Positions 3,823 through 58,124 of a stretch of 64,000 nt of DNA are shown one piece after another. How positions within the stretch are numbered: position 1 is the first letter of the stretch; every line of letters begins with the position of its first letter. This DNA comes from an uncultured Candidatus Saccharibacteria bacterium (GTDB taxonomy: Bacteria > Patescibacteriota > Saccharimonadia > Saccharimonadales > AWTP1-31), in NCBI GenBank assembly GCA_964629815.1, contig CAZVTA010000003.1, forward strand, positions 112,721 to 176,720. The letters run 5' to 3'. Below the pieces are notes generated by a model, which was not told the origin of the DNA, made no database searches, and saw only the letters and a list, made by a program, of their open reading frames with translations. The position numbers and the translations under genes were made by a program.

Positions 3823-4010
3823 TTGACATACCAACCACTTTATTGATATTTGTGGTATTACAACTGAGTGTTGGTTGTAGACAATGAAACATAACTCGTA
3901 TTTGGACGCTTGAGTTATGTGGAGTCAGTAGCGTAACCGGGCAACCAAACTTTCTCTGCTATAACGGCTCGAGAGGTTTGGACCCTAACAGGCCAAACCT
4001 CTTTTGTATT
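3823..4010 (+). promoter_or_regulatory. Candidate leader/attenuator: promoter-like TTGACA (3823-3828), hairpin 3890-3919, mutually exclusive antiterminator (3945-3956 with 3971-3981) and terminator (3971-3981 with 3993-4002, then TTTGTATT)
   Basis: Segments CCAAACTTTCTC / GAGAGGTTTGG / CCAAACCTCT read directly. The middle segment can pair with either neighbour. No obvious promoter lies between the terminator and the SD-led ATG at 4083. Confidence 0.4.
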
Positions 4011-4082
4011 AGCTAAATAAATATGCAAAGTGAGCGAGTCTAGTGACTGAGCCTAGCTACGCATATGCCAAAAGGAGATACA

Positions 4083-6986
4083 ATGCCCGAACACAGCCCT
4101 GCACGCTATTCGGAAGAGCTTACAAAATTAATGGCGTGTACAGATAATGATTCCTTAGTGCGCGTACATGATGCACTGTATGTTCGTGATGGCGAAGACT
4201 GGCAGTACCTACACCATGTAGGCGGAGTGCGACTATATGATCCTCGATACGACGAAGTGAAAACAAATGGCCAGCCCCAAGAACTGAAGCCGTGGGAGCA
4301 GTTTGTGCTAAACGGTGATTTTACAGTAATTGGCGACTACTTTCGCGACGGTAGACATCGCGATGTTGGTGCACGAGTACTTGGGGTTGAAGCAACAGAT
4401 TTATGTGCAGATGCACTACGAGAAGAGTTGGTAAGAGGCAAGGACCAGCTTGTATCGTTTGGCCAAGCCGGTAAAACGGTTGCGGTTGCCGCAGGCGATG
4501 GGGTAGTGTTTATGGCCCGGAAGACAGGCGAACATTCTAAGCAAATTGTCGCAGCAGCGGCTGCATCTGCCGTGCTATTTGGTGGTGTTGGGCTGCGTAT
4601 GGATCATATGGTTCCCGAACAGCCCGTGCCCACAGAACAAGCGCACGCCGCGACGCGGGGCGTTTCGATTGCAGTGCACGTAGATTCAACGACGGATGTC
4701 GAGGATTTGTCGTATCAGGTTGGTATGCCGCTCGAGCAAGTGCGACTTTCTGCCGACGGCAAAACGGCACACGTTACTATTCCACAGCCAACAATATTAC
4801 CAAAAATGACGCATGAACAAGAGACAGAACTTGCAACTCAGCTTGGTATTGATCCTCAGGTTATGAAAGCTGCCAACGAAGATACAACGAGCACAATTGT
4901 GCCGGTTCAGGACCTCGAGTTGGTACAGGTTACGGCGATAAGCCCAAATACTAAAGCAGTAGCGCAGGCGGTAGGCTTGCATGAGCAGGCAGTACAGGCA
5001 GTAACGATTGGCGATGAACATATGCTTGCCATGAGAACGCACATGATTGATGCCGACCCAACGGTTTGGGAAGACATGGCTTCCATCGTTTCTGTCGCAG
5101 CAAATTTACCTGAAAACGCTCAACAAAAAACTACGGTGGTTGAGGGCCAGACACCTGCAGAAGTGGCGCCGACACCGCAACCTGCACCCGAAGTTATAAC
5201 TCCCGAAGCAAAATATCATAAAGACATAGCAGAGGTGCAAAAAGCGCTCGAACATGCAGTTCAGACAGGGGGAGACCTTGGTCCGTTAAATCATATGGTA
5301 GTCTATTCGCCGTTATTTAACCCACGGCACGATTTGCCAGGCGATCTTGAATCTACTCGGCGTATACGATATATGCCACCTTCAAATCTGATGGAAATAC
5401 CCGGTTTGAAATACGAGTTTTCTCGTGGGGCGGGCGATATGCAGCGCTATGCAACTAATGAGACGGTCGCGACCACACTATACCTAGCGTATGCTTACCA
5501 ACAATATCTTGCACAGCATCCAGAATTACAGGCTACAATTGGCAACTCGTGTTTGCGGATTGGTGATTTGTCTGCAAAACACGATCATAAAACACACCAT
5601 GGTTCCATGGTGGACTACACTTCAAGCTTAAACTGCGACGTTCAGCACGGTCACCAGGTGGCAGATGGTCCTGTATTGTGGCTCAACCGTTCAACCGGCG
5701 GTGTGAGCGGAAGAATTGAAAATCCGCATTATGACCGAGCTATGGACATGTTCTTGCTGCAGGCACTAATGGGGGCTCATATTGGCGACAACTCATTAGT
5801 AGGCTCGATCCTCTACAACATTGATGGTGTAGATGTGCCGCGTTTGAAGAAGGCTGCAAACCATAGCAATCACGCTCATATAAATACAGCACCAGCGTTT
5901 AAAGATCTGCACCTGAAGGAATTTGCAGTTGGGGGTGAGCGTCCAGAGCTTAATCTAGATGGTTTGCGGGCAAGCGTGTTTGGTGATTACGTCCAAGGTT
6001 ACGGAGTGCCTGGTGTAAGTGATATGCCCCTATCCACGCTTGAGCAGCCAACTCAGCCGGCTCCCGTCGCACCTGAAGCAGTGGTAGCTGCGCAGGAAGT
6101 TACTGCTTCGCCTGAAGATCAATTTAAGTGGCATGTTGGTATGCTATTGAACGAAATTGCAGCCGGCGAGGGTGGGTATGATTCGGTTAACCGTGGTGTT
6201 GCCGGCGACACAAAAGTTGGCAGCGAAGCCTACCAGCGATTGTTTAGTGGACGGCAGTTGTCGCAGCTGACGATTGCAGAAATTCAGGCTAGCGATGCGT
6301 TTGCGGTGGGTAAATATCAGTTCATACCAAAAACCCTCGAGTCTGCAGTTCGTGCTTTGGGATTCGATAGAAATCGTGTGTTCGATTCTGCAACACAAGA
6401 TGAACTTGCAACAAAGTACTTGTTGTTCGCCAAGCGCCCAGCGTTAGCCAACTATTTGCGTGGTCAGTCAGACGACGTAAATGCTGCGGTTACTGCGCTG
6501 TGTATGGAGTTTGCGTCGATGCCGTGTCTCGACGGTACAGGGCATTACGATGGTGATCGTGCTGGCAATAACGCTGTGGGTGGTACAGAACGCGTCGCCC
6601 ATATACGGGCGCTGCTTACAAATGTGCGCAACGCCTTTGTTGGCTCGATCCTTACGGCCTATGCAGAAGCAAATTTGCCACCGGTTGAACCAGAAGAGGT
6701 TCCGATAGCCCCGACTCCGCCTATAACGCCATCTACGACCGCGGCGGTGCAGGCCGAGCCAGAAGTAGTACCACCGGTAACTGAAGCTGAAACATCTCGC
6801 GGTGCAGCACAGCAGGACGACGTGACTGGCCCAATTGTTTCGCTTTCGGAAGAAAGTGTGCGGCGAGTGCTGGGTTCGGTGATCGATGATGAAAACCGTA
6901 TTAACGATGCACTACAACAACTACAGGTTAATGACGAAGGTAGATACCAAATATCTACACAGCAGTTAATAGAGTTATCACAATAA
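4083..6986 (+). CDS. Large membrane-anchored putative cell-wall hydrolase: LAS-type metallopeptidase-like region + lambda-lysozyme/lytic-transglycosylase-like domain, Pro/Ala-rich linkers
   Basis: Start moved to the ATG at 4083, preceded by AAAGGAGA. One TM (QIVAAAAASAVLFGGVGL). HKTHHGSMVD (~5578-5616) plus NHSNHAHI (~5859-5885) resemble the HxxH..D / HxH motifs of MepA/M15-like LAS peptidases. EGGYDSVN...VGKYQFIPKTL...FDSATQDELA (~6166-6420) resembles phage lambda R-type lysozymes. Confidence 0.55.
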   Translation: MPEHSPARYSEELTKLMACTDNDSLVRVHDALYVRDGEDWQYLHHVGGVRLYDPRYDEVKTNGQPQELKPWEQFVLNGDFTVIGDYFRDGRHRDVGARVLGVEATDLCADALREELVRGKDQLVSFGQAGKTVAVAAGDGVVFMARKTGEHSKQIVAAAAASAVLFGGVGLRMDHMVPEQPVPTEQAHAATRGVSIAVHVDSTTDVEDLSYQVGMPLEQVRLSADGKTAHVTIPQPTILPKMTHEQETELATQLGIDPQVMKAANEDTTSTIVPVQDLELVQVTAISPNTKAVAQAVGLHEQAVQAVTIGDEHMLAMRTHMIDADPTVWEDMASIVSVAANLPENAQQKTTVVEGQTPAEVAPTPQPAPEVITPEAKYHKDIAEVQKALEHAVQTGGDLGPLNHMVVYSPLFNPRHDLPGDLESTRRIRYMPPSNLMEIPGLKYEFSRGAGDMQRYATNETVATTLYLAYAYQQYLAQHPELQATIGNSCLRIGDLSAKHDHKTHHGSMVDYTSSLNCDVQHGHQVADGPVLWLNRSTGGVSGRIENPHYDRAMDMFLLQALMGAHIGDNSLVGSILYNIDGVDVPRLKKAANHSNHAHINTAPAFKDLHLKEFAVGGERPELNLDGLRASVFGDYVQGYGVPGVSDMPLSTLEQPTQPAPVAPEAVVAAQEVTASPEDQFKWHVGMLLNEIAAGEGGYDSVNRGVAGDTKVGSEAYQRLFSGRQLSQLTIAEIQASDAFAVGKYQFIPKTLESAVRALGFDRNRVFDSATQDELATKYLLFAKRPALANYLRGQSDDVNAAVTALCMEFASMPCLDGTGHYDGDRAGNNAVGGTERVAHIRALLTNVRNAFVGSILTAYAEANLPPVEPEEVPIAPTPPITPSTTAAVQAEPEVVPPVTEAETSRGAAQQDDVTGPIVSLSEESVRRVLGSVIDDENRINDALQQLQVNDEGRYQISTQQLIELSQ

Positions 6987-14583: not shown

Positions 14584-14606
14584 TAATTCTGACTTGAGCC
14601 TATTTC

Positions 14607-14746
14607 TGGTGCGGATGAGATGGCTTGTTCAGTTCCATCCGGAATATGAGCAGTGCGAACGAGCCGTTAGGCGAGCTTTAGGGGGAGGGGTACGAAATTT
14701 GGATTCACTCCATATTCGTACCGGAGGGGTTCACCCCTCCTGAATG
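14607..14746 (-). other. tRNA-Leu(CAG) 3'-half mimic with spacer. Hairpin GGAGGGG-TGAA-CCCCTCC is followed by a GGTACGAA/TTCGTACC hairpin. A T-arm-like hairpin GATGG-AACTGAACAAG-CCATC follows, and the mimic ends in T-CATCCGC-ACCA.
   Basis: The last 14 nt are identical to the tRNA 3' end (14747-14760). The pseudo T-stem differs from the real GGAGG/CCTCT by paired changes. Confidence 0.6.
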
Positions 14747-14833
14747 TGGTGCGGATGAGAGGACTTGAACCTCCACGGGGTTGCCCCCACTACGACCTGA
14801 ACGTAGCGCGTCTACCAATTCCGCCACATCCGC
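14747..14833 (-). tRNA. tRNA-Leu(CAG), type II, CCA encoded
   Basis: GCGGATG..CTACG-TTCAGGT-CGTAG..GGAGG-TTCAAGT-CCTCT-CATCCGC-ACCA folded by eye; 87 nt. Confidence 0.95.
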
Positions 14834-14917: not shown

Positions 14918-14958
14918 GCGCGTCTACCATTCGCTAGACAGCGAACCGCCACATCCGC
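14918..14958 (-). other. Pseudo 5' fragment of tRNA-Leu(CAG): acceptor 5' strand + D-arm, with the D-loop AAT replaced by a 16-nt hairpin TTCGCT-GTCT-AGCGAA
   Basis: GCGGATGTGGCGG[TTCGCTGTCTAGCGAA]TGGTAGACGCGC versus the real GCGGATGTGGCGGAATTGGTAGACGCGC. A TTGCAG-17-TATTAT promoter-like sequence lies just upstream. Confidence 0.6.
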
Positions 14959-18102: not shown

Positions 18103-18189
18103 GCGCGAGTGCTGGAATTGGTAGACAGGCTACGTTGAGGTCGTAGTGTTCGTAAGGACGTGGAGGTTCAAGTCCTCTCTCGCGCACCA
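18103..18189 (+). tRNA. tRNA-Leu(GAG), type II, CCA encoded
   Basis: GCGCGAG..CTACG-TTGAGGT-CGTAG..GGAGG-TTCAAGT-CCTCT-CTCGCGC-ACCA; 87 nt. Confidence 0.95.
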
Positions 18190-18198
18190 AAACAATAT

Positions 18199-18227
18199 GC
18201 CGACCTCGAAGGTCGGCTTGTTGTTTT
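18199..18227 (+). terminator. Intrinsic terminator after tRNA-Leu(GAG)
   Basis: GCCGACC-TCGAA-GGTCGGC followed by TTGTTGTTTT. Confidence 0.7.
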
Positions 18228-18254
18228 GTAGCCGGTGGATTTGAACCGATAGGT

Positions 18255-18339
18255 GAGAAATGCCAGTGGCATTTTGCAAGGAAACCTTCTCTTGAAAACT
18301 TGTTTTCAAAGACGAAGTTTCGGGCCCGCAGAATGTGGG
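18255..18339 (+). ncRNA. 85-nt three-hairpin module, copy B
   Basis: GAGA-AATGCC/AGT/GGCATT-TT-GCAAGG-P2(AAACCTTCTCTTGAAAAC..TTTTCAAAGACGAAGTTTC)-GGG-CCCGCA/GAA/TGTGGG. Lies between ..ATAGGT and CAAGTCC.., which is a T-loop context. Confidence 0.6.
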
Positions 18340-18360
18340 CAAGTCCTCTCTCGCGCACCA
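18340..18360 (+). repeat. 21-nt direct copy of the tRNA-Leu(GAG) 3' end (T-loop CAAGT through ACCA)
   Basis: CAAGTCCTCTCTCGCGCACCA is identical to 18169-18189. Confidence 0.9.
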
Positions 18361-18371
18361 AGCAAAATAGT

Positions 18372-18400
18372 AACGACCGAAAGGTCGTTTTTGATTTTTG
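18372..18400 (+). terminator. Second terminator closing the Leu(GAG) complex
   Basis: AACGACC-GAAA-GGTCGTT followed by TTTGATTTTT. Confidence 0.65.
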
Positions 18401-18405
18401 TACGG

Positions 18406-18433
18406 TTGACAGATTGGTTGGCTGGTATATATT
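18406..18433 (+). promoter_or_regulatory. TTGACA-16-TATATT promoter; ATG at 18440 lies 6 nt after the -10 box (leaderless)
   Basis: Read directly. Confidence 0.55.
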
Positions 18434-18439
18434 GAGGTC

Positions 18440-18691
18440 ATGAAACATAATTTACAGAAGCCAGAAGTTTTGTGTGCACGGAATGTAATTATCTTTGAGT
18501 CGCCATACGCGGATGAGCCTCGATTAGATACGCCAGATGCAGGAAGTATGCTGAGCGAATATCCTCATGTGCCACCAGAAGTAGCCCGCGGTGCCCTTGA
18601 AAGCCTTACACAACTCGCAGATCTTGATATGCGTAGCCCAGAACGAGTTGCTGGGCTGCTTGCAATCGCAGACACTTTATCAGACCGATAA
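18440..18691 (+). CDS. Hypothetical protein (orphan cassette 1, gene 1)
   Basis: 83-aa ORF. Confidence 0.5.
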   Translation: MKHNLQKPEVLCARNVIIFESPYADEPRLDTPDAGSMLSEYPHVPPEVARGALESLTQLADLDMRSPERVAGLLAIADTLSDR

Positions 18692-18694
18692 TGT

Positions 18695-19234
18695 ATGACA
18701 AGCGAACGATATTTGTACGGACCCACAAATGGATTTGTAATTCCAGATAAAGCAGAGGTCAAAGCGCTGCCAAAAGGTATACGAAAATATACTGACAGAA
18801 TTGCGCCTCAAGGAAAGAGATGTCCTGACGGAATGTGGCGATCCGTTCCCGACGATGATTTTGCTTATGACGTTTACCTTACAAATGAAGAAGATGAGCT
18901 GTGGGTGAGACGCGCAACCCCATCGGTATTTCGTATGCAGGTACATACCCCACCGGGATTAAGCGGGGAGATAGAGCGTGTAATTTACAATTCGAGCGCA
19001 GGCAGTGCTGGAGTGTATGAATTTGGTGATTACGGTGCAGCAATCAGTATTGAGTCGGGCAATCCAGAAGAAATTGTTTCGATTCACAAGACAGACGATC
19101 CAGAAGGTTACCAACGTAAATTAAAATTTGTTTCTTGTTTACTGCTCGATAAATTGCTGCAGCGAAATCATTATAGGGAATTCTATCTTTCAAGAGCACT
19201 TGGGGGCGCCATGATTGACAGAGCGGTTGATTAG
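18695..19234 (+). CDS. Hypothetical protein (orphan cassette 1, gene 2)
   Basis: 179-aa ORF, 3-nt gap to the previous gene. Confidence 0.55.
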   Translation: MTSERYLYGPTNGFVIPDKAEVKALPKGIRKYTDRIAPQGKRCPDGMWRSVPDDDFAYDVYLTNEEDELWVRRATPSVFRMQVHTPPGLSGEIERVIYNSSAGSAGVYEFGDYGAAISIESGNPEEIVSIHKTDDPEGYQRKLKFVSCLLLDKLLQRNHYREFYLSRALGGAMIDRAVD

Positions 19235-19249
19235 GTTATATTAAAGGGC

Positions 19250-19555
19250 ATGCAAGAGCAACAGATTTCTCCAGGGGCAGCAACAAGAGCAAGAATAATG
19301 ACAACGGCCGAAGCGTGGCGTGCAACTTTGCACCCAAGCGATGCAGAATCATTGCGAAATCCTGCAGAACTGCTCGCTGCATTTCAGGATCACCAGATTT
19401 TTGCGAGTATGTTGGCCCGCGAGTTTCCTGAATCGATGCCTGGCCCCTACGAGCTATCTACCGAAGATATGGTTGTACTGCAAGGCTTGCGCCGTGCGCT
19501 GCCGTCTGCGGCCGATAGACTGTGGGAACAAGCCTATCCTATAGAAACCGCATAG
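19250..19555 (+). CDS. Hypothetical protein (orphan cassette 1, gene 3)
   Basis: 101 aa. TTGACA (19215-19220)-16-TATATT (19237-19242), ATG 7 nt later. Confidence 0.5.
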   Translation: MQEQQISPGAATRARIMTTAEAWRATLHPSDAESLRNPAELLAAFQDHQIFASMLAREFPESMPGPYELSTEDMVVLQGLRRALPSAADRLWEQAYPIETA

Positions 19556-19558
19556 CAT

Positions 19559-19918
19559 ATGGCACTTATTCGAGTTACTCATTTAGAATGTGGAGACGTA
19601 AAGCTTACTTCTAAAGATGTGAAGCTGTATACGTACGAAGGTAATGCCGAATGCCCGTCGGGCTGATATAGGTTTACGTGTTCAGAATGCGGCAAAATAG
19701 CATTGTATGATGCCGACCCGCAAGCTTTCGATATCTTACGTGCAGCAGGCTGCATAATAGAGGCGGTAAATGCGCCCGAGCATGATAGTAAAGAGGTTGA
19801 TTCAATAACGCTCCAGCAAGGTGTACTGTCTACAGATGAGGCTCTCGACACAATGAGGGCGCTCAATAGTGCGAGCGACCACCAAATTATGGAAATACTG
19901 ACCCGCAGCGTGCGCTAA
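19559..19918 (+). pseudogene. Cys-containing small ORF interrupted by an in-frame TGA (19664-19666); either two ORFs (35 aa + 71 aa) or a disrupted/recoded gene
   Basis: Own translation: MALIRVTHLECGDVKLTSKDVKLYTYEGNAECPSG*YRFTCSECGKIALYDADPQAF...; both parts are in the same frame. Confidence 0.35.
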
Positions 19919-19980
19919 GCCGCATTGTTGCATTTACAGATAAAAAAGGGTAAAATACTGCAGTTGCATACGTGCAAAAT

Positions 19981-20057
19981 GGGTTGTTAGCTCAGTTGGC
20001 TAGAGCATCTCGTTTACACCGAGGGGGTCGGGGGTTCGAGTCCCTCACAACCCACCA
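19981..20057 (+). tRNA. tRNA-Val(TAC), CCA encoded
   Basis: GGGTTGT..TCTCG-TTTACAC-CGAGG-GGGTC-GGGGG-TTCGAGT-CCCTC-ACAACCC-ACCA; 77 nt. Confidence 0.95.
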
Positions 20058-20065
20058 CGAAAACG

Positions 20066-20090
20066 GCCGGTCTTATCGACCGGCTTTTTT
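20066..20090 (+). terminator. Intrinsic terminator after tRNA-Val
   Basis: GCCGGTC-TTATC-GACCGGC followed by TTTTTT. Confidence 0.75.
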
Positions 20091-20134
20091 CGTGCTTCGG
20101 TGCGGTCTTGAATATCCGACCAAAGGGTCGGGGT

Positions 20135-20219
20135 GAGAAATGCCGGTGGCATTTTGCAAGGGAGCCAACTCTTACAAACTGGTTTGTAAAGATGTTGCGA
20201 CGGGCCTGCCAAAGGTAGG
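20135..20219 (+). ncRNA. 85-nt three-hairpin module, copy C
   Basis: GAGA-AATGCC/GGT/GGCATT-TT-GCAAGG-P2(GAGCCAACTCTTACAAAC..GTTTGTAAAGATGTTGCGAC)-GGG-CCTGCC/AAA/GGTAGG. Flanked by GGGTCGGGGT (20125-20134) and TCGAGTCCC.., so it sits inside a pseudo tRNA-Val T-loop. Confidence 0.6.
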
Positions 20220-20241
20220 TCGAGTCCCTCACAACCCACCA
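20220..20241 (+). repeat. 22-nt direct copy of the tRNA-Val 3' end
   Basis: TCGAGTCCCTCACAACCCACCA is identical to 20036-20057. It is followed by a 16-bp perfect hairpin (20241-20276). Confidence 0.9.
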
Positions 20242-20352
20242 AAGGATAAGTCCCATCAAGATGGGACTTATCCTTTGGCTCCGTGTAGTTTTTACAAAGG
20301 TGGTTGTTTGCGCTTCTGCTTTTGCTACAATCGAACACATTGAGGAGGGTAC

Positions 20353-20805
20353 ATGGAACATTCGCCGGAAATGACTTACGGTGCTAGCTCGCTCGGTGCC
20401 GCAAGCTCAGAAGCTCTGCAACAGCAATACCAAGCCGCACTCGGTCGTATAGAAGCGCGAGAAGACGGCGATTACCTAGATGGATACCCACTCCCACCGG
20501 ACAACGACGATGTATGGAAGACGCAGAGAATTGACGCAGACGTAACGCGTTTTATTGAGCCCTCAGTAGGGTTTGAGAGCGTTTGTTGGACTACTGAAAG
20601 GCGCATTTCGATCTTAGAAATTACCAACGCTGTGCAGCGGCAACGTAATATCCAAAGTATTATTAACGGCTGTGGGCCGTTTGATATTACTCCAGAACAG
20701 ACGGTGTTTATTGGCCTAGAGTTGATGCGTCAGGCAAAACCTAGTCGTATGCAAAAATTGGCAGCTTTTGTTGGCCGTATTGTGGAAGGAATTGCAGAAG
20801 CATGA
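20353..20805 (+). CDS. Hypothetical protein (orphan cassette 2, gene 1)
   Basis: 150 aa; TACAAT box and GAGGAGG SD upstream. Confidence 0.55.
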   Translation: MEHSPEMTYGASSLGAASSEALQQQYQAALGRIEAREDGDYLDGYPLPPDNDDVWKTQRIDADVTRFIEPSVGFESVCWTTERRISILEITNAVQRQRNIQSIINGCGPFDITPEQTVFIGLELMRQAKPSRMQKLAAFVGRIVEGIAEA

Positions 20806-20981
20806 CGCACGAGCAGATGGCAGAATCTTGCCCATACAGCGAAGAAGGCATTGCGGCGGTAGCAGCCGTGGTGGAAAAAATATTTGCTGGCCCCAGTCCA
20901 CAATATGTCGAATGGTTGTCGGGTTATTTGCAGCAACGGCACGAAGTAGCAGCACGTATTGGTTCACTGCCATTGTTCTAG
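20802..20981 (+). CDS. Hypothetical 59-aa protein (below the ORF-track cutoff)
   Basis: Own translation: MTHEQMAESCPYSEEGIAAVAAVVEKIFAGPSPQYVEWLSGYLQQRHEVAARIGSLPLF. ATGA overlap with the upstream stop. Confidence 0.45.
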   Translation: MTHEQMAESCPYSEEGIAAVAAVVEKIFAGPSPQYVEWLSGYLQQRHEVAARIGSLPLF

Positions 20982-21021
20982 ACGTGCGTGGTGCTATACT
21001 CGATATGAATGGAGGTATGCT

Positions 21022-21594
21022 ATGGCAGATCGTAGTGCAGAAAGTCCGTTGCTGGGTATAGAGCATGCTTGTGGCGGTTGCGAACAGGTTGACGTGTTAG
21101 AGCGTCAAGCAGGCGAGATATTACGTGCATCTGGCATGGTTGGGTTTGTGAACGAAGAAGGAACGGTTAGAGTGTGGGTCGGTAGAGATTCGATAGTCGA
21201 TCGACCGCGCGAAGAGCGTTTAGCGCAGGCTGGTATGGTTATTGATGCCGAGGTTCTGGGTAGTAACGATTCGCTGCGTTGTGCTGCTGGTTGCCTTTTG
21301 GCCGAAGTTTGCCTGAGCGATGTGTATAGGGATGTCAATGAATCGAATCATCAGTATAGGCAAGGCCATAAGTGGCACCAGATGCCGCTAGAAGATATTG
21401 TTGCCATGCCGCCACTCCTGTCCCCTGACGATGAGGTTACGAGATTTATAGAAGAGGCGTTTGGCGACACGGCAACGGAACATCAGGCTGCCGAAAGGCC
21501 TACGCACGGCACGGTGCATGTTCCACAGGTAGACGGTACAATAGAACGGTTTACCATTCGTCGCAGCGAAATTAATAGTAGTCAGGTACAGTAA
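21022..21594 (+). CDS. Hypothetical protein (orphan cassette 2, gene 3)
   Basis: Start moved to the ATG at 21022, which has a GGAGG SD 6 nt upstream; 190 aa. Confidence 0.55.
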   Translation: MADRSAESPLLGIEHACGGCEQVDVLERQAGEILRASGMVGFVNEEGTVRVWVGRDSIVDRPREERLAQAGMVIDAEVLGSNDSLRCAAGCLLAEVCLSDVYRDVNESNHQYRQGHKWHQMPLEDIVAMPPLLSPDDEVTRFIEEAFGDTATEHQAAERPTHGTVHVPQVDGTIERFTIRRSEINSSQVQ

Positions 21595-21603
21595 CCAATT
21601 ACT

Positions 21604-21846
21604 ATGGATATAGAACAGATACAACCAGCGGACAGTCCAGCGATTGCAAGGCTTCGGTTTACAGACGTAAACGGCAACGTCCAAGAGCGGAGCATACCAA
21701 CCAAGCCCATATTGAATATTGGTGAATGCGCATTAAGGACCGAGTGGCCAGAACCACCAGCCGAAGCGCCTTTGGGCAGGGCGATTATTCGTACCGATAC
21801 ATACCCGGGCTGGGTAACGGTTCCTACGCGGCTACTGTTGAGCTAA
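21604..21846 (+). CDS. Hypothetical protein (orphan cassette 2, gene 4)
   Basis: 80-aa ORF. Confidence 0.45.
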   Translation: MDIEQIQPADSPAIARLRFTDVNGNVQERSIPTKPILNIGECALRTEWPEPPAEAPLGRAIIRTDTYPGWVTVPTRLLLS

Positions 21847-21970
21847 CTCGATAAGGTGGGCAACAAAGTCCCACACTGGGTGTTCAAGCCGTGCGTAATA
21901 ATGACGCTGTTCGCCTTCGGGTGTTTCGACTCGGCGTATCATTCCTAGTCGTGCTAGGCACGCCATCTCT

Positions 21971-22041
21971 TGGTGGCTCCTCCCAGATCGCTTCACCGAA
22001 CTGGTCGTTCGCTCCGCTCACTTTTCCAGTTCTCGTCTGGG
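21971..22041 (-). other. tRNA-Phe 3'-half mimic: intact T-stem CCCAG/CTGGG with a 44-nt hairpin-forming insertion in the T-loop, then AGGAGCC-ACCA
   Basis: Minus strand: CCCAG-ACGAG[AACTGGAAAAGTGAGCGGAGCGAACGACCAGTTCGGTGAAGCGA]T-CTGGG-AGGAGCCACCA. The last 17 nt are identical to 22083-22099. Confidence 0.6.
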
Positions 22042-22048
22042 TACCATT

Positions 22049-22082
22049 AAAAAAGACCCCAGCTTTAGTGGGGTATTTTTAA
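22049..22082 (-). terminator. Terminator directly after tRNA-Phe
   Basis: Minus strand: AAAAATACCCC-ACTAAAGCT-GGGGTCTTTTTT. Confidence 0.7.
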
Positions 22083-22158
22083 TGGTGGCTCCTCCCAGAC
22101 TCGAACTGGGGACACAAGGCTCTTCAGGCCTCTGCTCTACCAACTGAGCTAAAGAGCC
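22083..22158 (-). tRNA. tRNA-Phe(GAA), CCA encoded
   Basis: GGCTCTT-TA-GCTC..GAGGC-CTGAAGA-GCCTT-GTGTC-CCCAG-TTCGAGT-CTGGG-AGGAGCC-ACCA; 76 nt. Confidence 0.95.
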
Positions 22159-22217
22159 ACAACCCGTCTATTTTATGAGAAAAAACACTTTTCGGCAAGG
22201 GTAGGGCGGTTAATAAC

Positions 22218-22349
22218 TTGCAAAAACACATTTGTCGTATACAATAGGCAAAAGTATGAACAGTATTTGTATGGCAAAGAAGACAAAGCGACAGCCCTAG
22301 CCGAAGCGGCCTTTTTTGACATGAAGCCCCGCCTCGGCGGGGTCTTTTT
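22218..22349 (+). ncRNA. Candidate small transcript: TTGCAA-16-TACAAT promoter, about 100 nt, two tandem terminators (22300-22317, 22327-22349)
   Basis: GCCG-AAG-CGGC + CTTTTTT, then CCCCGCC-TC-GGCGGGG + TCTTTTT. Contains only a 14-codon ORF (MNSICMAKKTKRQP). Confidence 0.3.
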
Positions 22350-22421
22350 ATGCTGTATGTCGATAAAAAGATTCATCTAGGGCCAGCACAGACAATGCTA
22401 ACTTTAAATGAACTGTAATAT

Positions 22422-22775
22422 ATGGAAAATAACAGAACTATACCAATTCAACCAGACATTGAGCCACTTGTGCCGTTACTCATGGTAGAGGCTATCCGCG
22501 AATCAGGGCAGTTGGCTGTATCGGGGCGGCCATTGTTTGTGATGGGTGGCGAAAAAGAACGCTATTATAACGACACGGTTATAGAGCTAGACGTGCCGCT
22601 GTACATATCGGCACTGCGTTCGATTCGCATTCCGCTTCTTGGGCACTCGCATCTCGAAAAAGTGTTCATCGGTGAGTACCCAGTGCTTACGGGTATACAC
22701 CAGGTTACGGGCGAAGACTACATGTTTGGCATACGGCCAGAGCTGAACTTCGACTGGTGCGACAACGCGGTCTAA
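22422..22775 (+). CDS. Hypothetical protein
   Basis: 117-aa ORF. Confidence 0.5.
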   Translation: MENNRTIPIQPDIEPLVPLLMVEAIRESGQLAVSGRPLFVMGGEKERYYNDTVIELDVPLYISALRSIRIPLLGHSHLEKVFIGEYPVLTGIHQVTGEDYMFGIRPELNFDWCDNAV

Positions 22776-23107
22776 TACCACTTGGCGCCGTACATAAGCC
22801 CACCAATGATGATCAGCTGCTGTAAGACGAGCCAGCACGCCTGGTAAAATATAATAACCTTTTCTTTATGGACGATTCCGTACCATAACCATACAAGCGT
22901 AAACAGCTGGTAGCCCACCCACGAACTAATGGCTATGCCCTCAGCGGACTTGTCGCGAAAAATCACATAAAGCTGCGGTATCGTTACGATTGGTTCAATG
23001 GCGGCCACAAGGTAAGTGAGCCGGTCTACGAGCAGGGGCTTGGCCTGTTTTTTTACAATGAGGGCTTTGCGGGCTTTGGTGTGTTGGTGTTGCCGAAATT
23101 TTGTCAT
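22772..23107 (-). CDS. PQ-loop / SemiSWEET-like 3-TM protein (paralog of 14230-14529)
   Basis: 111 aa; VTIPQLYVIF PQ motif; aligns along its length with the 99-aa paralog. Confidence 0.6.
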   Translation of the reverse strand: MTKFRQHQHTKARKALIVKKQAKPLLVDRLTYLVAAIEPIVTIPQLYVIFRDKSAEGIAISSWVGYQLFTLVWLWYGIVHKEKVIIFYQACWLVLQQLIIIGGLMYGAKWY

Positions 23108-23184
23108 GCTTATGCTTTAACTTTACTTCATACTAACAAATCTTGAGTTATTGCACAAAATGCCGTATAATCTCAATCTGTTAT

Positions 23185-23306
23185 GCGGGTCTAGCTCAGT
23201 TGTTTAGAGTGAGAGCTGCCTGAGGCAGGTCGCAAGGAAACCTTCTCTTGAAAACTTGTTTTCAAAGACGAAGATTCGGGGTCGCGGAACGTGACCGTCC
23301 TTGCCA
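23185..23306 (+). other. Pseudo 5' half of tRNA-Gly(GCC) (positions 1-24, then anticodon stem/loop CGTCCTTGCCA) interrupted by the 85-nt module
   Basis: GCGGGTCTAGCTCAGTTGTTTAGAG is identical to 23357-23381. TTGAGT-17-TATAAT promoter at 23143-23171. TTTAGAGT (23203-23210) can pair with ACTCTAAA (23321-23328). Confidence 0.6.
23211..23295 (+). ncRNA. 85-nt three-hairpin module, copy E
   Basis: GAGA-GCTGCC/TGA/GGCAGG-TC-GCAAGG-P2 (identical to copy B except 1 nt)-GGG-GTCGCG/GAA/CGTGAC. Confidence 0.6.
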
Positions 23307-23356
23307 GGCCAAGGTTGTCTACTCTAAAATCAAGAGATGTTCGTTTAGCAATATAT

Positions 23357-23433
23357 GCGGGTCTAGCTCAGTTGTTTAGAGCGCGTCCTTGCCAAGGACG
23401 AGGCCAGGGGTTAGAGTCCCCTGACCCGCACCA
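23357..23433 (+). tRNA. tRNA-Gly(GCC), CCA encoded
   Basis: GCGGGTC..CGTCC-TTGCCAA-GGACG-AGGCC-AGGGG-TTAGAGT-CCCCT-GACCCGC-ACCA; 77 nt. Confidence 0.95.
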
Positions 23434-42196: not shown

Positions 42197-45091
42197 ATGA
42201 AACGATATAACCCAAAAGACATAGAACCCAAGTGGCAAAAGATTTGGCAAGAGATGGGGGTGTATACAACCGACCTAGCTAGCAAAAAGCCAAAATATAT
42301 GGGCATGAGTATGTTCAATTACCCGAGCGGTGCCGGTATACACGTTGGCCATGCAATGAACTATACGATTAGCGATGTAAAAGCTCGCTTTAAGCGCCAA
42401 CAGGGATACGAAAGTTATCATCCGGTAGGTTGGGATTCGTTTGGATTGCCCGCAGAAAACTATGCGATTAAGGCTGGAGTTTCGCCGCAAGAAAGCATGG
42501 CTACTATTATTCCTGACTACCACAAACAATACCAGGCCATGGGTTGGAGTAATGACTGGGAAAAAGAAATCACAACCAGCTTGCCCGAATACTACAAATG
42601 GACACAGTGGATTTTTGTAAAAATGTACGAGCAGGGACTAGCTTATCAAGATAGTCGCTGGCAGTGGTGGTGCGACAAATGCCAGACCGTACTTGCAAAC
42701 GAACAAGTTATTGACGGTAAGTGCTGGAGGCATGATGGTTCGGATGATCCGCAGGTAGAAAAGAAAGAAGTTAAACAGTGGTTCTTCAAAATAACCGATT
42801 ATGCAGACGAGCTACTCGAGGCAACCGATGCGTTAGATTGGACTGAAAGTGTAAAATTGGCTCAAAAGAACTGGATCGGCCGCAGTCAAGGGGCAGAAAT
42901 TGAGTTTGGCGTCAAAGACTCAGACACAAGAATTACAGTATTTACGACAAGACCCGATACTGTGTATGGCGTTACATTTATGGTGCTTGCGCCAGATCAT
43001 GAGCTTGTAAAAGAGTTGACCGCAAAAGATAAGCGTAGTGAAGTTAGTGCCTACGTTAAGGAGACTGCTAAAAAAACCGATGTCGAGCGCCAAGCTGCTA
43101 AGGAAAAAACTGGTGTATTTATCGGCGCATATGCAATTAACCCCGCAAACAACGAAGAAATCCCTATCTACATTGCCGACTATGTGCTTTCTGGCTATGG
43201 TACGGGTGCCATTATGGCCGTACCAGCTCACGATGAGCGTGACTATGCATTTGCGAAAGCGTATAGCCTACCGGTCGCCTATGTGGTCGAGCCAACTTTT
43301 GGTACTCCACAAGGTGATGATACGCATAAAAAAGCTGTGTATGCTATTGTGAGGAATCCAAAAAATAATCACATAATTGTCTTAGACTGGGGTCCTCGCC
43401 AAGAACGACACGGTGGCTATATGCTTATTGGTGGTGGGCTTGAAGAGGGTGAGAATTATGTAGATGCTGCAAAGCGAGAGATCTCCGAAGAAACAGGGTA
43501 CAAGAATTTTAAACTAGTAAAAGAAACGGACTTTCTCGGACATGGGTATTTTTACTCGAACACCAAGCAAAAAAATATGCATGCCAGCGGCAAGGGATTA
43601 TTATTCGATCTGATTGATGAAGAAAAAACTGAAACGAATCTTGACGAAGGAGAAAAGGATAAATTTACGGTAACATGGCAACCGGCTCATCGTGTAGCAA
43701 CAATGTTAGATGATGGCATACACGAGGCGATGTTTCGTCGTTTAGTACTCGATGAAGTTTATAGCGGTGAAGGGGTTTTGGTTGAGTCTGGTGCATATGA
43801 TGGTATGCTCTCCAGCGAGGCGAGAGAAAAAATTGTAGCCGACTTAGAGCGTAAGGGGCTAGCAAAAGTTCGCATCAATTATCGTATGCGCGATTGGAGC
43901 ATTAGTCGTCAGCGTTACTGGGGTGCGCCAATACCCGTAGTAAATTGTGATTCATGTGGGCCGGTTATTCTGAGCGAAGATGACCTGCCAGTTGTATTGC
44001 CTGAATTAACCGACTTCAAACCAAGTGGTGATGGCCGTAGTGCTTTAGCACGAGCAAAAGACTGGCTTACGACTACCTGTCCAAAATGTGGTGGCCAGGC
44101 CGAGCGCGAAACGGACACGATGGACACATACGTTTGTAGTAGCTGGTATATGCTGCGGTATCTCGACCCACACAACCAAGAACAGATATTTAACAGCGAA
44201 ATTGCTAATGCATGGATGCCGGTCGATTTTTATAATGGTGGCGATCATGCCACTGCCCACCTACTGTATGCACGTTTCATTACCCGCTTTCTCTACAAAA
44301 TGGGGCTACTCGTTAATCCAGAACCCTTTAAACGGATGCTTTATAACGGTAAAGTAACTGCTAGTGATGGCAGTGTGTTTTCGAAATCGAAGGGCAATGG
44401 ACCAGATCCTCTTAAGATTATCGAGCAAGGCTACGGAGCAGATGCGCTGCGTACCTATCTGATGTTCGCTGCGCCTCTAGAGCTTGGAGCGCGGTGGGAT
44501 GAGCAAGGTGTGCCGGGTACTTACCGCTTTTTAACACGCGTATGGAACTTAACTCAAGAGTATAACGCAACTACGGCTGTAGAGCTTGATGAAAAGCAGC
44601 ATAAACAGGTACTCGGAATTGTGCACAAGGCGGCACGTAAGGTAACGGAAGATATCGAAGAAGATCGGTATAATACTGCTATTTCCGCCTGTATGGAAGC
44701 GGTTAATAAATTGTATTTGGCAAAAACTAAACTGCCGTTTGGAACGTCTCCACTGTGGCAAGAGGCAATTGAATTTATTGTTCAGCTGATTGCGCCGTTT
44801 GCGCCACATGTCGCCGACGAACTTTGGCAGCAGCTGGGTCACAGTGATTCAGTACACAAGGATCATTGGCCACAGTGGCAGAAAGAATATCTTATCGACG
44901 ATACAATCACAATTGTCGTACAGGTGAATGGCAAGGTGCGCGCACAGCTACAGGTTGCCGCAGATACAGCTAAAGAAGAGATATTGGCGCTTGCCAAGGC
45001 AAACGAGCATGTACAGACATTTCTAGCAAAAGGCGCTATCAAGAAAGAAATTTTCGTACCAAACAAACTTGTCAATCTCGTAGTTTCATAG
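42197..45091 (+). CDS. leuS: Leucine--tRNA ligase with an inserted Nudix-box domain
   Basis: 964 aa. HVGH and FSKSKGN class I motifs; CP1 editing TTRPDT..AVPAHDERDY. About 150 extra aa follow, containing GGLEEGENYVDAAKREISEETGY (43433-43501). Confidence 0.95.
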   Translation: MKRYNPKDIEPKWQKIWQEMGVYTTDLASKKPKYMGMSMFNYPSGAGIHVGHAMNYTISDVKARFKRQQGYESYHPVGWDSFGLPAENYAIKAGVSPQESMATIIPDYHKQYQAMGWSNDWEKEITTSLPEYYKWTQWIFVKMYEQGLAYQDSRWQWWCDKCQTVLANEQVIDGKCWRHDGSDDPQVEKKEVKQWFFKITDYADELLEATDALDWTESVKLAQKNWIGRSQGAEIEFGVKDSDTRITVFTTRPDTVYGVTFMVLAPDHELVKELTAKDKRSEVSAYVKETAKKTDVERQAAKEKTGVFIGAYAINPANNEEIPIYIADYVLSGYGTGAIMAVPAHDERDYAFAKAYSLPVAYVVEPTFGTPQGDDTHKKAVYAIVRNPKNNHIIVLDWGPRQERHGGYMLIGGGLEEGENYVDAAKREISEETGYKNFKLVKETDFLGHGYFYSNTKQKNMHASGKGLLFDLIDEEKTETNLDEGEKDKFTVTWQPAHRVATMLDDGIHEAMFRRLVLDEVYSGEGVLVESGAYDGMLSSEAREKIVADLERKGLAKVRINYRMRDWSISRQRYWGAPIPVVNCDSCGPVILSEDDLPVVLPELTDFKPSGDGRSALARAKDWLTTTCPKCGGQAERETDTMDTYVCSSWYMLRYLDPHNQEQIFNSEIANAWMPVDFYNGGDHATAHLLYARFITRFLYKMGLLVNPEPFKRMLYNGKVTASDGSVFSKSKGNGPDPLKIIEQGYGADALRTYLMFAAPLELGARWDEQGVPGTYRFLTRVWNLTQEYNATTAVELDEKQHKQVLGIVHKAARKVTEDIEEDRYNTAISACMEAVNKLYLAKTKLPFGTSPLWQEAIEFIVQLIAPFAPHVADELWQQLGHSDSVHKDHWPQWQKEYLIDDTITIVVQVNGKVRAQLQVAADTAKEEILALAKANEHVQTFLAKGAIKKEIFVPNKLVNLVVS

Positions 45092-57821: not shown

Positions 57822-58124
57822 ATGGATCCAACACAAGATCAGCCTGCTGTACCAACGCCAAGCGTTGACCCAGCTGCACCAGCACCGGCTCCAGCGCCAG
57901 CAGAAAGCGCTACACCAGACATCACTGTAAGTGCGCCAATGGCAGATATACCAACGCCAAGCGTTGACCCAGCTGCACCAGCACCTGTAGAGCCTGCACC
58001 GGCTGTAGAACCTGCGCCAGTTGTAGAGCCTGCACCGGCTCCAGCTGACCCAGCTGCACCAGCACCGGCTCCAGCAGAAGAGGGTGCGCCCGCAGAAGCG
58101 CCACAGCAATTCGGATCATTCTAA
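57822..58124 (+). CDS. Pro/Ala-rich low-complexity protein
   Basis: 100 aa. GGAGGG SD. DNA-level repeats (CCAACGCCAAGCGTTGACCCAGCTGCACCAGCACC at 57852 and 57951). Terminator at 58143-58172. Confidence 0.45.
   Translation: MDPTQDQPAVPTPSVDPAAPAPAPAPAESATPDITVSAPMADIPTPSVDPAAPAPVEPAPAVEPAPVVEPAPAPADPAAPAPAPAEEGAPAEAPQQFGSF

Follow-up and report, generated by a model that had tools for sequence, protein, structure and literature searches.

A three-hairpin module of about 88 nucleotides in partial tRNA copies of Candidatus Saccharibacteria: a possible small insertion element directed at tRNA sequence

Elements that integrate at tRNA genes, such as phages and integrative and conjugative elements with attachment (att) sites and tandem accretion, leave a complete and a partial tRNA as direct repeats on the two sides of the insert, regenerate the tRNA and, when events are repeated, stack remnants at the same tRNA; the general principle for such elements is given in bioRxiv 10.1101/2022.07.05.498093. 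The units described here, three of which lie in a 64,000-nucleotide (nt) stretch of an uncultured Candidatus Saccharibacteria bacterium (contig CAZVTA010000003.1, positions 112,721 to 176,720; the window in what follows), are alike in these respects, and each is built around a folded module of about 88 nt. The content of the insert, however, is very different. The insert is only 171-184 nt long and consists of just a terminator, an antisense tRNA arm and the module, with neither integrase nor cargo, and no recombinase family recurs near the modules at 67 loci. Moreover, the module units use both 5′ and 3′ pieces of the tRNA, occupy many positions of the cloverleaf, contain an inverted tRNA arm, and have a covarying three-hairpin core.

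Archaeal tRNA genes offer a second comparison, as their introns at non-canonical positions have been proposed to transpose among tRNA genes. These introns are also short structured inserts, located in the D-loop, at 25/26 and 37/38, in the variable loop and in the T-loop, sometimes with two in one gene. The module, in contrast, is bacterial and has one 88-nt fold at all sites, and its host is a truncated tRNA copy lacking 2 nt, with a separate intact gene. No bulge-helix-bulge context is evident, though the motif itself was not modelled. Identity as a tRNA intron was rejected because removal from a copy that is both truncated and missing 2 nt cannot give a tRNA. We consider instead that the module represents an undescribed family, restricted to Saccharibacteria as sampled, that behaves like a small insertion element, not autonomous and directed at tRNA sequence, and we assign this reading a probability of about 0.5.

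Fold, selection and range of the module

A reading of the window made from sequence only had reported three + strand copies of 85 nt each, at 18255-18339, 20135-20219 and 23211-23295, and both coordinates and size are right; the boundaries widen by 2 nt on the 5′ side and 1 nt on the 3′ side of each copy, to 18253-18340, 20133-20220 and 23209-23296. A repeat finder places the three copies (c1, c2 and c3) in one 85-nt family with 75-86% identity. The similarity is mosaic, as had been noticed, with P1 common to c1 and c2 and an identical P2 in c1 and c3. The claim that no protein frame is preserved also holds, as 1-nt indels occur at alignment columns 51 and 81 and only spurious open reading frames (ORFs) run through the module. 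A covariance model (R1) was run on the window, where the runner-up to c1, c2 and c3 (scores in Table 1) reaches 12.4 bits with E = 0.45; this gap shows that the window contains exactly three intact copies and that these are not chance matches. The window itself is bacterial chromosome, encoding UvrC, LigA, LeuRS, BipA, Ddl and a Mur ligase, and ARAGORN finds eight tRNA genes in it.

The pairing statistics are based on an alignment (A1) of 60 distinct module copies from 58 sources, in which 20 positions are invariant by construction because the scan patterns used for collection demanded them; copies recovered by the model only vary at these positions, for example to GTGCGA, or to CCGAU in P2. 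The structure string of the alignment is.((.((((((((...)))))))).))..(((((.((((((((((((.....))))).)))).))))))))..(((((((....))))))). Across the 60 copies, standard pairs occupy 96.4% of the cells, compared with 82.3% after column shuffling and 30-48% after displacement of the partners by 1-3 columns. Changes on both sides are seen at 18 of 34 pairs (275 cells), and the covariation score is 0.40, against 0.14 for shuffled and <0.08 for slid columns. The share of paired cells and the number of two-sided changes were reached by none of 500 shuffles, and RNAalifold independently recovers P1, the P2 core and P3. The earlier observation of paired substitutions in the stems is thereby upheld well beyond the window.

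The module of ~88 nt comprises three hairpins: P1 has 10 base pairs (bp), an A.G mismatch and an NGU triloop; P2 has ~17 bp, interrupted by two bulges, and a CUNG loop; and P3 has 6-7 bp, among them a conserved G.U, and ends in a GAA loop. The GAGA and TT/TC-GCA joiners had been taken for single-stranded; they instead lengthen P1 through U2-A26, G3-C25, the A4.G24 mismatch, G5-Y23 and A6-U22, and the actual junction linkers are AG and GG. The G.U at the fourth pair of P3, said to be retained in all window copies, is present at pair 77-86 in 55 of the 60. Pair 73-90 is G.U in 31 copies and G-C in 26; it involves the nucleotide that directly flanks the module and makes an optional seventh P3 pair. 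Pair 5-23 shows G-C in 49 and G.U in 10, and in 22 copies a tandem G.A/A.G replaces two A-U pairs at the base of P2. Since G.U pairs would read as A.C on the opposite strand, the + strand is the folded strand. These data support a strand-specific fold of the module that is under selection and is matched by no named family, in line with the initial attribution of the pattern to selection on a folded RNA or single-stranded DNA. The helices each seem to switch between a small number of permitted variants. Conserved junction purines, together with boundaries that coincide with helix ends, may be hints toward a new class of self-cleaving ribozyme.

The absence of a named family holds in Rfam 15 at gathering, at E ≤ 10 over 5.6 kilobases (kb) and over 176 nt, a check that takes in the hammerhead, twister, pistol, hatchet, HDV and hairpin ribozymes, group I and II introns, tmRNA and YrlA. 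In the window only tRNAs and a c-di-GMP-II riboswitch are found at gathering, nothing meaningful covers the module at E ≤ 10, and no description of the module was found in Rfam or in the full-text-searchable literature.

A scan of 185,579 species-representative genomes with a 20-base pattern, for which approximately one chance match is estimated, returned 67 loci, nearly all in metagenome-assembled genomes of Candidatus Saccharibacteria and a few labelled Parcubacteria, Binatia or 'bacterium'; the pointer to Patescibacteria had therefore been right. A metagenome scan added 61 further loci (individual loci are cited by L numbers below). R1 detects 89 copies in the 67 genome loci, at most 4 per 8 kb, and a looser regular expression gives 148 copies in all. 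Three patterns found no true match in a viral collection, the single match (L002) being chance, and the module is not evidently phage-borne. Divergent sub-families are seen in L031 (4300-4400), L007 (2766-2853 and 3238-3325), L084 and L127. One of them has a GTGCGA 5′ end and CCGAU/AUCG in place of CUCUU/AAGAG in P2, and a more distant variant begins GTGAGGAGTGCTGCGTCTAGCACTCCGGAAACC...; the family is thus wider than the search pattern. Synteny through the neighbouring 316-amino-acid (aa) protein was limited to three homologues, with the sole long contig stopping at the gene. The exact FAD-oxidase protein of the window occurs on only one other public contig (L001, from Logan, 3376 nt), which runs ~210 nt beyond the neighbouring gene and, by coordinate estimate, stops near the 3′ end of tRNA-Leu, at the start of the 22-nt repeat. 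This estimated end suggests that the units break short-read assemblies.

tRNA units, junctions and orientation

While the fold and the lack of a named family stood in the sequence-only reading, the decisive tRNA context of the copies was absent from it. Every copy in the window is set within an incomplete duplicate of the tRNA gene next to it, tRNA-Leu(GAG) for c1, tRNA-Val(UAC) for c2 and tRNA-Gly(GCC) for c3, and the exact repeats of the tRNA end, of 22, 22 and 28 nt, are spaced by 171, 184 and 172 nt, respectively (Table 1). With this embedding, the question is no longer one of an orphan structured RNA but one of an insertion module directed at tRNA sequence.

Module units accompany tRNAs of 14 amino-acid families, and two arrangements recur among the 114 modules that have a tRNA within 260 nt. 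In type A (59 modules, including c1 and c2) the intact tRNA is followed by T1, a long terminator that forms a perfect palindrome, then a degenerate antisense tRNA running from the CCA back to about position 44, a turn of 3-6 nt, 8-10 nt in sense, the module, a perfect sense copy from 55/56 to the CCA, and a second terminator (T2). In type B (38 modules, including c3) a perfect sense copy of positions 1-k precedes the module, which is followed by ~10 nt in sense, the turn, the antisense copy, a spacer with a -10-like box and the intact tRNA. One side of the module therefore has a perfect tRNA copy that extends to the tRNA end, and the other has only 8-12 nt of sense sequence before the antisense turn-back. 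A unit placed downstream leaves the intact tRNA its own terminator (c1, c2), and one placed upstream leaves the intact tRNA its own promoter (c3). Ahead of the intact tRNA-Gly there is a promoter-like TTGCCA-18-TAAAAT at 23301-23330 (+), whose -35 box is the duplicated anticodon-loop sequence of the foldback, so that the duplication may supply the promoter of this gene.

Most units carry the degenerate antisense copy, which creates a foldback, and a single-stranded unit is predicted to form a hairpin with the module as a three-hairpin branch. RNAfold applied to the whole c1 and c2 units predicts a five-way junction of the tip hairpin, P1, P2, P3 and a closing helix between antisense arm and tRNA piece; in the first unit the antisense arm at 18228-18252 would close it by pairing with 18340-18346. 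The tip always lies 8-12 nt beyond the module, whichever the tRNA position, and this constant distance shows that foldback and module are coupled. In L010 and L032 the antisense arm retains the 2 nt absent from the module-bearing arm, which indicates that it was copied from an uninterrupted tRNA. Its identity to the tRNA reverse complement is 0.64-0.88 over the T-loop and variable loop and 0.33-0.64 over the acceptor part, and the units of L084 and L096 have neither T1 nor an antisense arm.

Three other explanations of unit features were rejected. The antisense arm is not a generic T-arm complement carried by the element, as it contains tRNA-specific bases (GGAAAGG in L038, for example). Adenine mutagenesis of the arm, of the kind associated with diversity-generating retroelements, was rejected by eye in L016 only, where mismatches are mostly transitions and not specific to template A. 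Finally, the pairing of GUGAGA with the 3′ strand of the tRNA T-stem that RNAfold proposes is due to chance, because GUGAGA is invariant while its T-stem partner varies.

Both flanks could be placed on the neighbouring tRNA in 79 units, and in 72 of these exactly 2 nt are exchanged for the module, which spans 86-88 nt when counted from U2 through the last position of the 6-bp P3. The nucleotide 5′ of the module is always G, itself usually after G or A, and the first nucleotide on the 3′ side is usually a pyrimidine able to pair with G73; the replaced dinucleotides vary (GT, TT, CG, CA, GC, GA, TG, AG). About 60 insertion sites are in the T-loop (G53-T54 or T54-T55), and the others occupy gene positions 25-28 or lie in the anticodon loop (37-41), the variable loop (45-49) or the D-loop (17-20). 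These sites are loops or hinges of the folded cloverleaf, and the rule of 2 nt lost after a G applies at more than eight different tRNA positions. With respect to orientation, 111 of 114 modules are in tRNA sense, and only 66 of 103 are on the locally G-rich strand (66 to 37), which argues that orientation follows transcription and not the replication strand. In L060, L052 and L070 the identity of type B units continues past the tRNA 5′ end for at least 15 nt upstream, and at least part of the duplication thus took place at the DNA level.

The modules are also found inserted in one another. In six loci a second module lies within the P3 of the first, after CGGG, and by eye the nested module of L068 replaces GT. 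One pseudo-tRNA-Leu copy in L080 contains two modules, and in L010 and L052 the module is on the antisense strand of tRNA-Phe. Units stack around a single tRNA with the distal ones decayed, as with the scores of 108, 63 and 41 bits in L028 and likewise in L007 and L031. At the syntenic tRNA-Leu(GAG) by the FAD-oxidase gene there is a type A unit in the window and L068, a type B unit in L065, and none in L007 and L027, which have the tRNA and a single terminator only. Mean identity between modules is 0.79 within a genome, 0.79 for the same tRNA in other genomes and 0.78 for any other pair, and nearest neighbours (0.84-0.95) are usually in other genomes and at other tRNAs; similarity tracks neither tRNA type nor genome. 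In a search for linked enzymes, 1173 ORFs of the 67 loci were clustered all against all, which yielded only spurious through-module ORFs and housekeeping genes.

The Gly-GCC units are a particular case. An odd hairpin after the module, CCTTGCCAGGCCAAGG, is common to those of the window, L006, L029/L114, L055/L120 and L013, and on this basis the units look orthologous. In four of five lineages their 24-25-nt tRNA piece equals the tRNA of the species concerned, acceptor position 7 (C, G or T) included, and in L013 it has one mismatch. These observations suggest gene conversion of, or selection on, the piece rather than mere parasitism.

Two further tRNA genes of the window are surrounded by related sequence. 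Downstream of tRNA-Phe(GAA) is a decayed unit in which a bracketed 8-nt piece (Table 1) stands in the place of the module and obeys the after-G and 2-nt rules; this piece probably derives from the module. Around tRNA-Leu(CAG), at 14747-14833, there is module-free tRNA debris at 14599-14619 and 14918-14958 (-). The upstream part is a partial 5′ copy, GCGGATGTGGCGG[ttcgctgtctagcgaa]TGGTAGACGCGC, with a 16-nt hairpin instead of AAT, and ~125 nt downstream of the gene there is a copy of its last 13 nt.

Table 1. Coordinates of the module copies and associated tRNA features in the window
Feature	Position	Strand	Basis
Intact tRNA-Leu(GAG), partner of c1	18103-18189	+	ARAGORN; Rfam tRNA 48.9 bits; c1 63 nt downstream
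T1, long palindromic bidirectional terminator-like hairpin directly 3′ of tRNA-Leu	18190-18227	+	Stem 18199-18217, A-tract/T-tract flanks; both-strand terminator scan
Degenerate antisense tRNA-Leu T-arm GGATTTGAACC, then tiny tip hairpin and short sense arm	18228-18252	+	Similarity to tRNA reverse complement
Module copy 1 (c1)	18253-18339	+	R1 match 105.9 bits, covariation; G1 (18253) tRNA-derived, U2 to P3 end 18254-18339
Perfect 21-nt copy of tRNA-Leu 56-76, CCA-terminated	18340-18360	+	A at 18361 also matches, giving a 22-nt exact repeat of 18169-18190
T2, second terminator-like hairpin, closes unit 1	18372-18389	+	Terminator scan
Intact tRNA-Val(UAC), partner of c2	19981-20057	+	ARAGORN, Rfam; c2 75 nt downstream
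T1 terminator-like hairpin after tRNA-Val	20065-20085	+	Terminator scan
Degenerate antisense arm (reverse complement of T-loop, T-stem, variable loop), then tip hairpin	20099-20132	+	Similarity, folding; tip hairpin CCGACC-AAA-GGGTCGG, 3′ strand is the short sense arm (tRNA 44-52)
Module copy 2 (c2)	20133-20219	+	R1 match 96.2 bits; takes the place of G53-T54 in tRNA-Val sequence (junction mapping)
Perfect 22-nt copy of tRNA-Val 55-76, CCA-terminated	20220-20241	+	Exact repeat
T2, perfect 17-bp palindrome, closes unit 2	20241-20278	+	Sequence
Decayed unit downstream of tRNA-Phe(GAA) (22083-22158, -)	21971-22082	-	T1 palindrome, antisense arm, then CCAGTTCG[TGAAGCGA]TCTGGGAGGAGCCACCA
Promoter-like TTGAGT-17-TATAAT, would drive tRNA-Gly 5′ piece and c3	23143-23171	+	Promoter scan
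Perfect 25-nt copy of tRNA-Gly 1-25	23185-23209	+	28-nt exact repeat with 3 upstream nt
Module copy 3 (c3)	23209-23295	+	R1 match 99.7 bits; takes the place of C-G, gene positions 26-27 of tRNA-Gly (junction mapping)
Short sense arm (anticodon-stem 5′ strand and loop), foldback hairpin CCTTGCCAGGCCAAGG, degenerate antisense D-arm	23296-23343	+	Sequence comparison
Intact tRNA-Gly(GCC), partner of c3	23357-23433	+	ARAGORN, Rfam

Proposed mechanism and competing explanations

In the mechanism that we propose, the module would be transcribed jointly with a tRNA piece, and the folded RNA, either as a ribozyme alone or with a trans-acting enzyme, would be inserted at accessible G^NN^ sites of tRNA-like folds. 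Because insertion into a single functional gene would be lethal, DNA copies would survive solely in redundant tRNA copies. These may arise through snap-back or template-switch duplication at the terminator palindrome, which would give the direct-inverted-direct order, or alternatively by recombination through the shared tRNA piece, and repeated rounds would leave units stacked at one tRNA. On a bolder reading, the module would be a small ribozyme, or the RNA core of a ribonucleoprotein (RNP), that joins itself to tRNA at G^NN^ in exposed loops, using the antisense arm as guide and the perfect piece as exchangeable exon. We regard this reading as quite unlikely; what it would imply is a mobile RNA that invades tRNAs without any protein, or else a trans-splicing replacement of damaged tRNA ends in bacteria whose tRNA genes are single-copy.

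Several observations speak against an insertion element of this kind. Although c3 lies behind a good predicted promoter, c1 and c2 lie behind terminators with no promoter predicted for either, so that their transcription is not assured. Insertion at the RNA level is deduced solely from orientation and site statistics. Active insertion sequence (IS) families, or families of miniature transposable elements with inverted repeats (MITEs), usually show recent bursts; the module copies of one genome are 64-93% identical (13 pairs, mean 0.79), with none above 93% and no sign of a recent burst. Orthologous Gly-GCC units, with the piece tracking the species' own tRNA, persist across at least four species, and units persist in spite of flanking direct repeats of 21-28 nt, which would be expected to favor deletion. 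Finally, no transposase, integrase or reverse transcriptase recurs near the modules at the 67 loci (flanks to ~14 kb), no free or circular form was seen, and the metagenome scan revealed no empty c3 allele.

The module can also be compared with smaller repeats and with catalytic introns. Like bacterial MITE, REP and RPE-type repeats, it is small, multi-copy, hairpin-forming and non-autonomous; unlike them, it occurs strictly in tRNA sequence and in a locked orientation, and its copies are not near-identical but diverged, keeping the fold by compensatory changes. A MITE was rejected since the module ends (UGAGA... and ...P3) are not inverted repeats and 72 of 79 insertions delete 2 nt with no target duplication. 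With IS200/IS605 elements (PATE/REP) the module shares a strand-specific fold with a hairpin at each end, P1 1 nt from the 5′ end and P3 at the 3′ end. It shows no lagging-strand preference (66/103 on the G-rich strand), and no TnpA or RAYT gene is found near the modules; a lagging-strand single-stranded DNA transposon was rejected on the lack of skew bias. A group I intron needs a P1-P9 core of at least ~200 nt and was rejected for a module of 88 nt and three hairpins, with no Intron_gpI match, in a truncated host copy lacking 2 nt. A group II intron is incompatible in size, has no Rfam match and would end in AY, which the module does not. Its 5′ GUGAGA/GUGCGA does resemble the group II GUGYG, but G1 is tRNA-derived.

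Likenesses to the proposed mechanism are found elsewhere. In R2-type retroelements the RNA is co-transcribed with the target, the flanks can anneal to it, and 2 bp of target are deleted, and group I trans-splicing ribozymes are alike in guide, core and exon order. Both are functional analogies only, as the module has neither an ORF nor a reverse transcriptase and resembles no known ribozyme class. Tandem inversion duplications and origin-dependent inverted-repeat amplification share the direct-inverted-direct tRNA order, with junctions at the terminator palindrome and the tip hairpin. The module units differ in scale (tens of nt), in the third copy always having the module 8-12 nt from the junction, and in T2, which is usually not a copy of T1. 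A snap-back triplication fits the order and junctions of c1 and c2, but T2 in the window is not a copy of T1, and the module itself is not accounted for.

Three rival explanations deserve weighing. The units could be host-beneficial RNAs specific to a tRNA, in which the antisense arm pairs with the cognate tRNA around one loop as a guide, the module is a catalytic or protein-binding core, and the perfect piece is a spare 5′ or 3′ part, serving either to mend cleaved tRNA in a manner like trans-splicing or to regulate tRNA maturation by alternative pairing. The layout of guide, core and exon is indeed that of engineered group I trans-splicing ribozymes. Conservation of the antisense arm is highest beside the module and drops further off, copies within a genome are old yet structurally intact, sense orientation is near-universal, c3 has a strong predicted promoter, and the perfect piece of orthologous Gly units co-varies with its own tRNA down to acceptor position 7. 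A useful RNA would not, however, be expected to be missing from the orthologous tRNA-Leu loci of L007 and L027, to be broken in its P3 by other modules, to stand behind terminators as type A units do, or to do entirely without an antisense arm, as in L084 and L096. The antisense tRNA-Phe cases make no sense as spare exons, and simple excision from a copy lacking 2 nt gives no correct tRNA. We regard this explanation as doubtful. In a second alternative, the module would be a cis-acting structural element (insulator, terminator or processing signal) of single origin, spread by local tRNA-gene duplication, and the foldbacks would be unlinked template-switch debris. Foldback debris does occur without a full module at tRNA-Phe and tRNA-Leu(CAG) of the window, and the direct-inverted-direct order with palindrome junctions is that of a snap-back replication product, a related process being described in PMC11790251. 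This alternative is very improbable given the coupling of foldback and module through the constant tip distance at every tRNA position, the exact 2-nt and after-G rule at more than eight positions, the nested and double insertions, and a module similarity that follows neither tRNA type nor genome.

It is also conceivable that the module moves as DNA, as a miniature transposon (MITE-like, PATE-like of the IS200/IS605 type, IS607-like, or a tiny integrative circle) whose transposase or recombinase would be encoded elsewhere in the genome and would recognise, in tRNA genes, either the folded top strand or GG sites. Hairpins at both module ends and a G.T-tolerant fold would suit single-stranded DNA as well as RNA. 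Target sites always follow G, usually GG; the 171-184-nt insert between direct repeats of the tRNA end, with the tRNA regenerated, follows the principle of integrative elements (bioRxiv 10.1101/2022.07.05.498093); the stacking resembles tandem accretion; and the identity upstream of the tRNA 5′ end in L060, L052 and L070 places at least some of the duplication at the DNA level. Against this, terminal inverted repeats are absent and 2 nt are lost, not duplicated; orientation follows tRNA sense and not the replication strand; the sampled flanks of the 67 loci, to ~14 kb, contain no transposase or integrase; copies in the same genome are far from near-identical; and the insertion points are the loops of a folded RNA. 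We consider DNA-level transposition unlikely on these grounds.

If the module is an insertion element aimed at tRNA sequence, it would be a structured RNA of a new class, one whose covariation is unusually clean, and a new way of exploiting tRNA genes by 88 nt with no linked protein and with a signature of its own, namely insertion after G, loss of 2 nt and a preference for cloverleaf loops. It would account for the partial tRNA copies and assembly breaks around Saccharibacteria tRNA genes, would be a candidate for a small ribozyme or an RNA-guided activity, and would give a concrete model for the spread of short insertions among tRNA genes, a question raised so far mainly for archaeal tRNA introns. 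As Saccharibacteria are now culturable and transformable, the question is open to experiment.

Other features of the window

Between the tRNA units, at 18440-19555 and 20353-21846 (+), lie ORFs of 83, 179, 101, 150 and 211 aa with no Pfam domain. The c-di-GMP-II riboswitch at 3868-3951 (+) is full length (68 bits) and lies directly upstream of a 973-aa ORF (4065-6986), also with no Pfam domain. Leucyl-tRNA synthetase (42197-45091, +) has an unusual architecture, in which a NUDIX domain (residues 377-502) is inserted immediately behind the editing domain. Finally, imperfect tandem repeats of 54 and 30 nt, rich in CCAGC/ACCAGC, are located at 57833-58088 (+).

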